Virus record (IMG/VR): IMGVR_UViG_2778260993_000018
Span: 1-16,902 of that record
Length of the DNA stretch: 16,902 bases
Reading direction: 5' to 3' (one strand)
DNA from: a virus
Lineage: Duplodnaviria; Heunggongvirae; Uroviricota; Caudoviricetes
The position numbers were made by a program, and so were the translations under genes. The notes under the pieces were generated by a model, which was not told the DNA's origin, searched no databases, and worked only from the letters and a program-made list of their open reading frames with translations. Positions 5,043-5,919 of this stretch are shown here, in pieces (within the stretch, counting starts at the first letter, position 1; every line of letters begins with the position of its first letter).

Positions 5043-5615
5043 TCACTGGCCTTCTGGCATACCATGAGTATTCAGGTCGTTAATCATTTCATCCAGAAGG
5101 AGTTCAAGCCCTTCTCGCCCCATGTCTGAAACAATGAAACCTTTATCTGGGTATGTAATGAGCATTTTCTGATAAAGAAATAGTGCTCTACCCATTCCTT
5201 CTGCCTCGCCGTATTTTTGAATTAAATTCCATTCAATATACTGCTGTAAGGCAAACCGAATAGGGCCGGGATATATCGTCATAACCCCATGCTTCCCGTT
5301 ATATATTACGGCGCGATCTGTTGTTCCGTGTTCATTCGGGACATCAATTGTGCCGTTCTTGTCTTCTTCTTCGTTGATGAATGTCGTCACATACAACCAT
5401 CGCCACTGGGCAACCTTCATCTCAACCGGAAGTTTTCCCAGTAATCCTGCTTCGTCAGCTTGCGCGAGACACTGAAGGATACGTAAACCTCGCACATTAG
5501 GAGTATCGAATTCTCCAGCATCCAGACGGCGTATGGCGTCGTGATAATCAATAGTCATACTGCCTGTTTGTATACCATTGGCTGTTGCTTCAGCCTGGAA
5601 TTCAGCGTATTGCAT
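5043..5615 (-). CDS. Hypothetical protein, 190 aa, no recognisable domain
   Basis: GAGGA Shine-Dalgarno 9 nt before the ATG at 5615, embedded in the last codons of the upstream 60-aa gene (coupled). Followed by the candidate terminator. Confidence 0.7.
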   Translation of the reverse strand: MQYAEFQAEATANGIQTGSMTIDYHDAIRRLDAGEFDTPNVRGLRILQCLAQADEAGLLGKLPVEMKVAQWRWLYVTTFINEEEDKNGTIDVPNEHGTTDRAVIYNGKHGVMTIYPGPIRFALQQYIEWNLIQKYGEAEGMGRALFLYQKMLITYPDKGFIVSDMGREGLELLLDEMINDLNTHGMPEGQ

Positions 5616-5620
5616 GAAAT

Positions 5621-5803
5621 TTATTCCTCATCTTCATCTGCTGGTGCAATAACGTCATATCCTGCCTTTTCTGCAATAAACAGGAATGTTGAAAGATTTC
5701 CTACAAATTCATCGTCATGAACATGACGAATTAATATTACTTTCCCGTTTTTGATGGTCAGCAATACTCTGGTTTGTTCGTGTTCTGCTGTTTTCTGATG
5801 CAT
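5621..5803 (-). CDS. Hypothetical small protein, 60 aa, with acidic C-terminal tail (..APADEDEE)
   Basis: GGGAG Shine-Dalgarno 6 nt before the ATG at 5803. Stop lies 5 nt before the 190-aa gene start. Confidence 0.6.
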   Translation of the reverse strand: MHQKTAEHEQTRVLLTIKNGKVILIRHVHDDEFVGNLSTFLFIAEKAGYDVIAPADEDEE

Positions 5804-5805
5804 TA

Positions 5806-5919
5806 TTATCTCCCGTATGCTTTACGCAGAAACAAGCAGGCAATATGCATGTGATTTTTCCCGTGTTGTGCAATAAGGCAGGCTGTTTTGTGTGATGCCT
5901 TATGTTTTATAAAAGTCAT
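5806..5919 (-). CDS. Unlisted small ORF, 37 aa, basic and Cys/His-containing (MTFIKHKASHKTACLIAQHGKNHMHIACLFLRKAYGR)
   Basis: Near-consensus AGGAGG Shine-Dalgarno (5927-5932 on minus) with a 7-nt spacer to the ATG at 5919. TAA stop at 5806-5808 sits 2 nt before the ATG of the 60-aa gene, whose ribosome-binding site lies inside this ORF's 3' end. Confidence 0.35.
   Translation of the reverse strand: MTFIKHKASHKTACLIAQHGKNHMHIACLFLRKAYGR

Follow-up and report, generated by a model that had tools for sequence, protein, structure and literature searches.

In phage lambda, the accessory genes of the early-left (PL) operon are expressed early and under the control of the repressor, and rexAB and sieB are exclusion genes of the kind that is often carried between cI and int. 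The interval between int and cI corresponds to the early-left operon among lambdoid phages more generally (PMC12315714). Two genes of this interval have so far been catalogued as encoding hypothetical proteins, known from phage phiP27 as L07 and L06 and grouped in the PHROG families phrog_340 and phrog_1515; RefSeq labels them 'hypothetical protein' and both PHROG families are listed as of unknown function. Here we analyze their counterparts in a 16,902-nucleotide stretch of DNA from a tailed phage of the Caudoviricetes (positions 1 to 16,902 of IMG/VR record IMGVR_UViG_2778260993_000018), hereafter termed the window. In it, three minus-strand genes between positions 5,043 and 5,919, which we name s37, p60, and p190 after the lengths of their products in amino acids, had been put forward in a preliminary description as a candidate uncharacterized accessory system, a translationally coupled cassette with its own terminator.

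We propose that this trio is a trimmed form of a conserved seven-gene array within the early-left operon of a phiP27-like prophage of the Shiga-toxin type and that its products are early-expressed binding proteins, a reading that as a whole we consider rather probable. Its structural and evolutionary part we hold with high confidence, while its functional part, that the products are binders, is put forward tentatively. What is new in this analysis is that s37 is recognized as a conserved family of microproteins, together with its conserved coupling junction and the seven-gene collinear array; a literature search covering accessions, peptide motif, and topic returned nothing on the trio genes, the s37 junction, or the array.

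Chained genes and the collinear array

The window represents the left arm of a lambdoid E. coli prophage resembling phiP27 and includes its cI-int interval. The trio (5043-5919, minus strand) lies between the immunity region and xis-int and is read toward int, and this layout is shared by Fels-1, phi467, SaltyDalty, and Klebsiella prophages. The placement between cI and int that had been described is thus accurate, as cI, which encodes a self-cleaving repressor of the S24 type, occupies 7056-7835 (minus strand), xis, encoding the excisionase, 1321-1575 (minus strand), and int 1-1287 (minus strand), so that xis and int together account for positions 1-1575. Over the 1.4 kb around the trio, identity is 98-99% with Stx2a/2d-converting phages and with E. 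coli chromosomes, and 77% with phiP27 itself.

Read from the sequence, all three open reading frames (ORFs), of 37, 60, and 190 amino acids, are present where they had been reported. The microprotein gene s37 (5806..5919, minus strand), the first of the array, is preceded by the consensus AGGAGG that had been claimed for it (5932-5927, minus strand). This Shine-Dalgarno sequence is separated from the ATG by a 7-nucleotide (nt) spacer, reads AGGAGG, TGGAGG, or AGGAGA in the variants found in E. coli, and is the only strong ribosome-binding site of the trio. The site of p60 (5621..5803, minus strand), GGGAG at 5814-5810, lies within the final s37 codons (TAC GGG AGA TAA), with the p60 ATG 2 nt past the s37 TAA, and the site of p190 (5043..5615, minus strand), GAGGA at 5629-5625, lies within the final p60 codons, with the p190 ATG 5 nt past the p60 TAA. 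Both downstream sites are therefore inside the last codons of the preceding ORF, and the genes are chained by overlapping ribosome-binding sites as the preliminary description had stated. What we infer from this arrangement, in which the last codons of s37 (Tyr-Gly-Arg, TAC GGG AGA) provide the Shine-Dalgarno sequence of the next gene, is translational coupling, in which translation of s37 would supply ribosomes to p60 and translation of p60 would do likewise for p190.

The junction at the end of s37 is not particular to p60. Whichever gene comes next, its start is found 2-3 nt past the s37 stop or in a 4-nt overlap with it, and the codons at the end of s37 have the sequence GGGAG(A/G). Because this junction is kept whatever follows s37, coupling to the next cistron would be a conserved property of s37 itself. 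The s37 element is present in 339 of the 5426 complete E. coli genomes and the whole trio in 282, and in the other s37-carrying genomes, about 58 in number, a different gene set begins 2-3 nt after the s37 stop. Since s37 heads these other gene sets as well, it is conserved backbone rather than cargo of the trio.

The relation of the trio to a longer operon became apparent when loci were classified with reference proteins of seven families. The complete order is s37, phrog_8959, phrog_1737, p60 (phrog_340), ParE_like (PF24732, phrog_1525), phrog_1886, and p190 (phrog_1515), which is the last gene of the array. This order is never permuted across some 260 related loci, in which members are lost singly, although the loci are not independent counts, as many viral contigs were fetched twice and all were ascertained via s37 or p190. 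The form seen in the window, s37-p60-p190, was found at 154 loci and the full seven-gene array at 49, for the most part in the search that started from distant relatives of p190. Between these extremes there are nine or more intermediate forms, including s37-1737-p60-ParE_like-1886 (15 loci), s37-1737-p60-ParE_like-p190 (13 loci), and s37-1737-p60-ParE_like-1886-p190 (9 loci), together with small numbers of forms that lack p60, ParE_like, phrog_1886, or phrog_8959. For p190, a very diverse alignment left no conserved stretch, and the locus search was run with a narrower one. The arrays have as neighbors Rha, Bro-N, ORF6N/ANT, and Lar-like early genes.

Neither p60 nor p190 depends on the presence of the other. 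The gene for p190 occurs without p60 in L010 and L011 (Phytobacter and an Enterobacterales genome) and in the viral contigs L182-L188, and p60 occurs without p190 in L003-L005, L173, and L180 and in Salmonella prophages. Moreover, in Klebsiella and in many viral contigs the two are separated by two genes, ParE_like and phrog_1886; the Klebsiella arrays have at their end a p190 homologue with 43% identity and are headed by an s37 that had not been called. Co-occurrence of the three genes in other genomes is widespread, but they occur as members of a longer operon and not as a dedicated three-gene unit. With s37 found at the head of other gene sets and p60 and p190 each found alone, the notion of a self-contained trio cassette has to be abandoned; what survives of the proposed accessory system is a set of chained accessory genes in the cI-int interval.

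The p190 homologues of L182-L188 (at approximately 4500-8200 in these contigs) are an observation in their own right. They are 45-60% identical to P0064, a distant p190 relative used as query, and stand apart from all other members of the array, following paralogous 65-87-residue helical proteins and Rha/Bro-N genes and lying two genes upstream of a Zn-ribbon/Toprim/DUF927 primase-helicase. These contigs resemble another kind of element, temperate or satellite.

The same distribution bears on whether the members of the array make up a single coherent multi-protein system of the phage, for example a counter-defense or host-takeover complex with s37-p60-p190 as its minimal core. In such an unrecognized module of enterobacterial temperate phages, s37 would set or gate translation, and may itself be an effector, while p190 would be the terminal effector. 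The array is strictly collinear in Escherichia, Klebsiella, Salmonella, and Phytobacter, s37 and p190 bracket it and with p60 are what its most reduced form retains in two diverged E. coli lineages, and the putative translational coupling runs along its length, with ATGA-type overlaps of p60 and p190 in the phiP27 lineage. However, every internal member can be absent, p190 is found alone beside primase genes and p60 without p190, and a conserved order is also what would be expected of independent genes in a packed operon that evolves by deletion. We think a coherent system unlikely, although among the alternatives it is the leading one.

Proposed early transcription and the flanks of the trio

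The proposal of an early-left origin draws further on a PL-like promoter (TTGACA-17-TATTGT; 6933..6905, minus strand), which a promoter scan called with 10 of 12 matches, the best score of the region, just upstream of the gene for a double helix-turn-helix (HTH) regulator. Its -35 hexamer is overlapped by an operator-like 12-mer, TATAGCGATTGA (6941..6930, minus strand), that is found again in identical form in the cI/cro intergenic region at 7845-7856, with a near copy at 7832-7843. Allowing up to two mismatches, the window holds 6 matches to this 12-mer against 1.26 expected, a number attained by 0 of 200 shuffles. A scan for terminators between the PL-like promoter and s37 called none, and a 9-bp GC-rich hairpin follows the stop codon of cI. 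Taken together, these features point to a PL-type, repressor-controlled early transcript that would carry the trio. Inactivation of cI would then lead to transcription from the operator-bearing promoter near 6905, and the transcript would pass the double-HTH gene and a 66-residue gene before it reached s37, p60, and p190. As small soluble proteins that lack catalytic motifs, their products could be stoichiometric binders of host or phage proteins that act soon after induction or infection, with candidate roles in host takeover, in counter-defense, or in the regulation or tuning of the lysis-lysogeny decision, as for the dispensable genes kil, cIII, and ral of lambda. Upstream of the excisionase gene there are two weaker copies of the 12-mer, at 1677-1688 and 1712-1723, each with two mismatches.

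The 82-nt spacer upstream of s37 is itself conserved. It contains the intergenic motif ACGGCTTAATCGCCGGGGATT (5951..5971, minus strand), located 5' of s37 and able to form a CGGC-N6-GCCG hairpin, which shows little or no change across 26 distinct upstream variants, that of the distant locus L218 among them. Folded as a single sequence the spacer gives z = -2.9 with the Shine-Dalgarno sequence paired. When a structured RNA was considered for this region, RNAalifold kept two small hairpins only for the conserved spacer motif ACGGYYTWAKCGCCGGGGAWT, compensatory change was not seen in the alignment, and the spacer matched no Rfam family; it matched no promoter either.

A different account of the region would have the trio as a moron that is expressed in the lysogen from its own promoter in this spacer and that acts in superinfection exclusion or abortive infection. 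The cI-int position is a frequent site of exclusion genes in lambdoid prophages, the spacer motif is strongly conserved, a weak hairpin and T-run follow p190, and just 3' there is a pair of genes for a membrane protein and an SPFH lipoprotein, the first of which, of 62 residues, is a member of a PHROG in the class moron/host takeover. Against this, no sigma-70-like site was found in the spacer (by a crude consensus scan, which is weak evidence), the s37 gene of Phytobacter abuts the preceding ORF with no spacer between them, and in most relatives Rha- or ORF6N-type early genes follow directly after p190 with no terminator. The suggestion that the trio is anti-phage cargo also found no support in PADLOC-DB 2.0, in which s37, p60, p190, and the four additional members of the array had no match at E ≤ 0.1. 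We regard a lysogen-expressed moron as quite improbable.

The hairpin after p190 is the terminator that the preliminary description had assigned to the trio. It consists of GAAGAAT-ATA-ATTCTTC (5027-5011) followed by CG and six T residues (5008-5003), the whole spanning 5003..5027 on the minus strand, and has a 7-bp A/T-rich stem with 2 G-C pairs, a 3-nt loop, and a folding energy of -4.9 kcal/mol, which is no better than that of shuffled sequences (z = -0.17). It was not called by the terminator scan, and it is absent from most relatives, among them the commonest E. coli lineage and the Klebsiella-type arrays, in which another gene lies within about 10 nt of p190. A terminator belonging to the trio is thus not borne out, and the hairpin may be a leaky terminator that is part of the downstream backbone block.

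That block is delimited by a mosaic breakpoint at approximately 5150, within the 3' end of p190, as the sequence between the SPFH gene and about 5150 shares 91-99% identity with phiP27 and the sequence to the right of this point 56-82%, and this drop indicates recombination inside the p190 coding sequence. The near-identity of the hairpin to that of phiP27 follows from its location in the 91-99% identical block, a recent mosaic piece. Conservation of the hairpin and of an adjoining 35-residue ORF was considered as a sign of functional constraint and rejected, since both are part of this block and the ORF has a ratio of nonsynonymous to synonymous substitution rates (dN/dS) of 1.17. The ORF in question, MKSNRDLSRVKLLLILATVLTITEIIILFIALSVS (4882-4989, minus strand), is unannotated, lies between p190 and the gene for the 62-residue membrane protein, and is kept in phiP27. 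It would encode a charged N-terminus and one hydrophobic helix and is without a clear ribosome-binding site, and its dN/dS value is based on little divergence (dS 0.08).

The p60, p190, and s37 proteins

Both of the larger proteins are under purifying selection, with dN/dS of 0.19 for p60 and 0.13 for p190. The p60 protein is 53% identical to phiP27 L07 and has 517 relatives in Enterobacteriaceae, all of them hypothetical. It is predicted to form a small module of a beta-hairpin and a helix, and the only lead for it is that its core aligns weakly with the C-terminal parts of the anti-repressor families phrog_4792 (E = 1.6e-5) and phrog_2379 (E = 4.8e-4), the same weak alignment to anti-repressor PHROGs being given by the E. 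coli p60 paralogue. The acidic tail ascribed to p60 is present in the allele of the window (PADEDEE), but relatives have unrelated tails, and the calculated charge at pH 7 is -6.1 for the window protein compared with -0.3 in phiP27 and -2.2 in Klebsiella. The p190 protein, 71% identical to L06, belongs to a small family, of which a set of 1.84 billion clustered proteins contains 116 representatives at E ≤ 1e-3. An AlphaFold2 model built from a 15-sequence alignment (predicted local distance difference test score 88.3, predicted template modeling score 0.84) is of the alpha/beta type, with small beta-meanders alternating with helices, and the protein is acidic (charge -12) and soluble. The model had no structural match in the PDB or BFVD, and the p190 alignments contained no conserved catalytic-looking motif, in agreement with the earlier remark that no motif could be recognized in it.

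Single-sequence and profile searches of Pfam, NCBIfam, PADLOC, and PDB sequences gave nothing significant for s37, p60, or p190, and homology of the trio to a characterized housekeeping function of phages was likewise looked for and not found. There are no paralogues of the three proteins in the window. Two further possibilities concerning p60 were tried and set aside. The phrog_1737 protein is not a disguised p60 domain that could stand in as partner of ParE_like in the absence of p60 (hhalign probability 0.1%), and a p60 domain was found in none of the neighboring ORF6N/anti-repressor proteins tested. Pairing of p60 and p190 alleles was also rejected as a sign of interaction, as their classes co-vary no more than linkage would give.

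These data are relevant to the suggestion of a type II toxin-antitoxin pair made up of p190 and p60 (or s37), or of a pair of small basic and acidic proteins that act as DNA mimics. The genes are small, adjacent, and putatively coupled, and in the longer arrays p60 is directly upstream of, and overlaps, the 72-residue ParE_like gene (PF24732), so that p60 might be an antitoxin-like leftover after deletion. In E. coli and Klebsiella, the first 29 nt of ParE_like are shared with the end of the p60 paralogue, and in Phytobacter ParE_like follows phrog_1737 (loci L004 2736-3141, L179 4001-4403, and L010 4370-4591). On the other hand, p60 and p190 are not obligate neighbors and are usually two genes apart or single, and ParE_like is also found without p60 (L010, L174, L176, L227, and L240) and is missing from the window itself. 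No toxin or antitoxin family matched, no promoter of their own was called, and no known antitoxin or DNA-binding fold was found for p60. The complementarity of charge, like the acidic tail, is allele-specific. A pair of either kind is very unlikely on this evidence, and a lysogen-expressed toxin-antitoxin or defense module in general is not thought likely.

For s37, the sequence comparisons provide good support for a genuine family of protein-coding microproteins, one that is usually overlooked by annotation pipelines. At every related locus the ORF is intact, with approximately 50 distinct peptides of 35-37 residues among all loci fetched, the commonest allele having a GTG start in place of ATG, and their consensus is M(T/S)FI.D.AAYKTA.LYA..G.E.IA.LYLRKAYGR. 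Homologues are found at the same position in prophages of Escherichia, Klebsiella, Salmonella (Fels-1), Cronobacter (ENT39118), and Phytobacter, and none of the s37 variants matched Pfam, NCBIfam, PADLOC, or PHROG models. The 37-residue ORF had been described as unlisted, which is true of RefSeq/PGAP and of the phiP27 record, where s37 is intact and without annotation, but it does appear as a coding sequence in BCI49708.1 and XNS37654.1. Its description as a basic Cys/His peptide fits the allele of the window (charge +6.9 at pH 7) and does not extend to the family, as homologues have a charge of +1.7 and the Cys/His positions vary. Among the window, phiP27-type, and commonest viral-contig alleles, the in-frame dN/dS is 0.06-0.23 compared with 0.4-7 in the other two frames.

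That the ORF is non-functional as a protein, and serves only as a conserved element of RNA or DNA, or as a leader whose peptide sequence is indifferent, is highly improbable, for although its C-terminal codons double as the next Shine-Dalgarno sequence and so impose a constraint at the nucleotide level, and although the s37 region is somewhat more conserved than the coding flanks within E. coli, length and frame are held throughout the known variants, a comparison of E. coli with Phytobacter shows saturation of synonymous sites (proportion of synonymous differences 0.82-0.90 versus 0.27-0.29 for nonsynonymous ones, with differences at codon positions 1, 2, and 3 in the ratio 16:5:22), the other two frames show the high dN/dS values given above, and no Rfam family covers it.

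With these alternatives in view, several points still weigh against the proposal that the trio is a remnant of the longer array encoding early binders. The promoter and operator are assigned from sequence motifs, and the assignment of p60, p190, and s37 as binding proteins rests on their position, their size, and the absence of motifs. Read-through from cI, or a promoter in the 82-nt spacer that escaped detection, could drive expression in the lysogen. The adjacency of p60 and ParE_like keeps an antitoxin-like role of p60 imaginable. The s37-p60-p190 adjacency is retained in two lineages of E. coli, between which amino acid identity has fallen to approximately 50-70%, and could signal a functional core, and the non-independence of the locus counts applies here as well.

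Neighboring genes and relation to known systems

From high to low coordinates, the minus strand of the interval encodes cI (S24), the double-HTH regulator, the 66-residue gene, the trio, the 35-residue hydrophobic ORF, the 62-residue membrane protein, the SPFH lipoprotein, an IS110-family transposase, a DUF5406 protein, the excisionase, and the integrase, with a Cro/YdaS-like gene on the strand opposite to cI at the high-coordinate end of this order. The 62-residue protein (phrog_1130) is predicted to be a two-helix membrane protein, and its gene overlaps the start of that of the SPFH/Band-7 lipoprotein (phrog_200, phiP27 L05), the two spanning 3846-4858 on the minus strand. This pair is retained 3' of both types of E. 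coli cassette and had no match among the PADLOC models. The transposase (DEDD_Tnp_IS110 and Transposase_20; 2657-3676, minus strand) is inserted between the DUF5406 and SPFH genes; a 99%-identical prophage, that of E. coli 94-3024, has these two genes side by side.

To the other side of the immunity region there are two tandem copies of the isrK small RNA followed by a C4 antisense RNA (9082-9270 and 9929-10117, plus strand), recognized at the Rfam gathering level with 57 and 80 bits. Their location is within or beside Ash/Rha anti-repressor-type genes at 8854-9687 and 9875-10723 and look like a duplicated c4-ant immunity module, in the style of P1/P7, in a lambdoid prophage.

The prophages that carry these genes are of clinical importance, as they include Shiga-toxin-converting phages, a prophage often found in ST131-type E. 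coli, and prophages of Klebsiella, and some 6% of complete E. coli genomes have these genes. Should the early-operon reading hold, the array would add further dispensable early accessory genes to those available as candidates for screens of host takeover and counter-defense. Two features go beyond routine annotation, namely a microprotein family whose last codons make up the ribosome-binding site of the next gene and a protein, p190, that can be modeled with confidence and for which no structural relative was found. As a target for small-protein and counter-defense screens the region is sound, and nothing in it would so far surprise a specialist.

How does the trio compare with described systems? 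In the longer arrays, the layout of p60 and ParE_like resembles that of RelE/ParE toxin-antitoxin modules, and the window differs in having no ParE_like gene. The anti-repressor PHROGs are similar to p60 in the weak alignment given above, and genes of the Rha, ORF6N, ANT, or Bro-N type are regularly found 3' of the arrays; p60 has none of the N-terminal Bro-N, ANT, or ORF6N domains, and the repressor of the window is of the self-cleaving S24 type. The closest relatives are L07 (P27p07) and L06 (P27p06) of phiP27, which are orthologous to p60 and p190 and have the same position and order. They differ in that p60 and p190 overlap by 4 nt in the phiP27 lineage, whereas the window has the 5-nt gap and the acidic p60 tail. 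Finally, the lambda PL genes kil, cIII, ral, sieB, and ea10 were without detectable similarity to the trio in sequence or fold, and the window phage type, unlike lambda, has no Rec module in the cI-int interval. What the lambda genes share with the trio is their position between repressor and xis-int, their orientation, their small size, and their mosaic presence, and repressor-controlled early expression is presumably common to both. The trio falls among the accessory genes of lambdoid early-left operons and is not a new kind of system.

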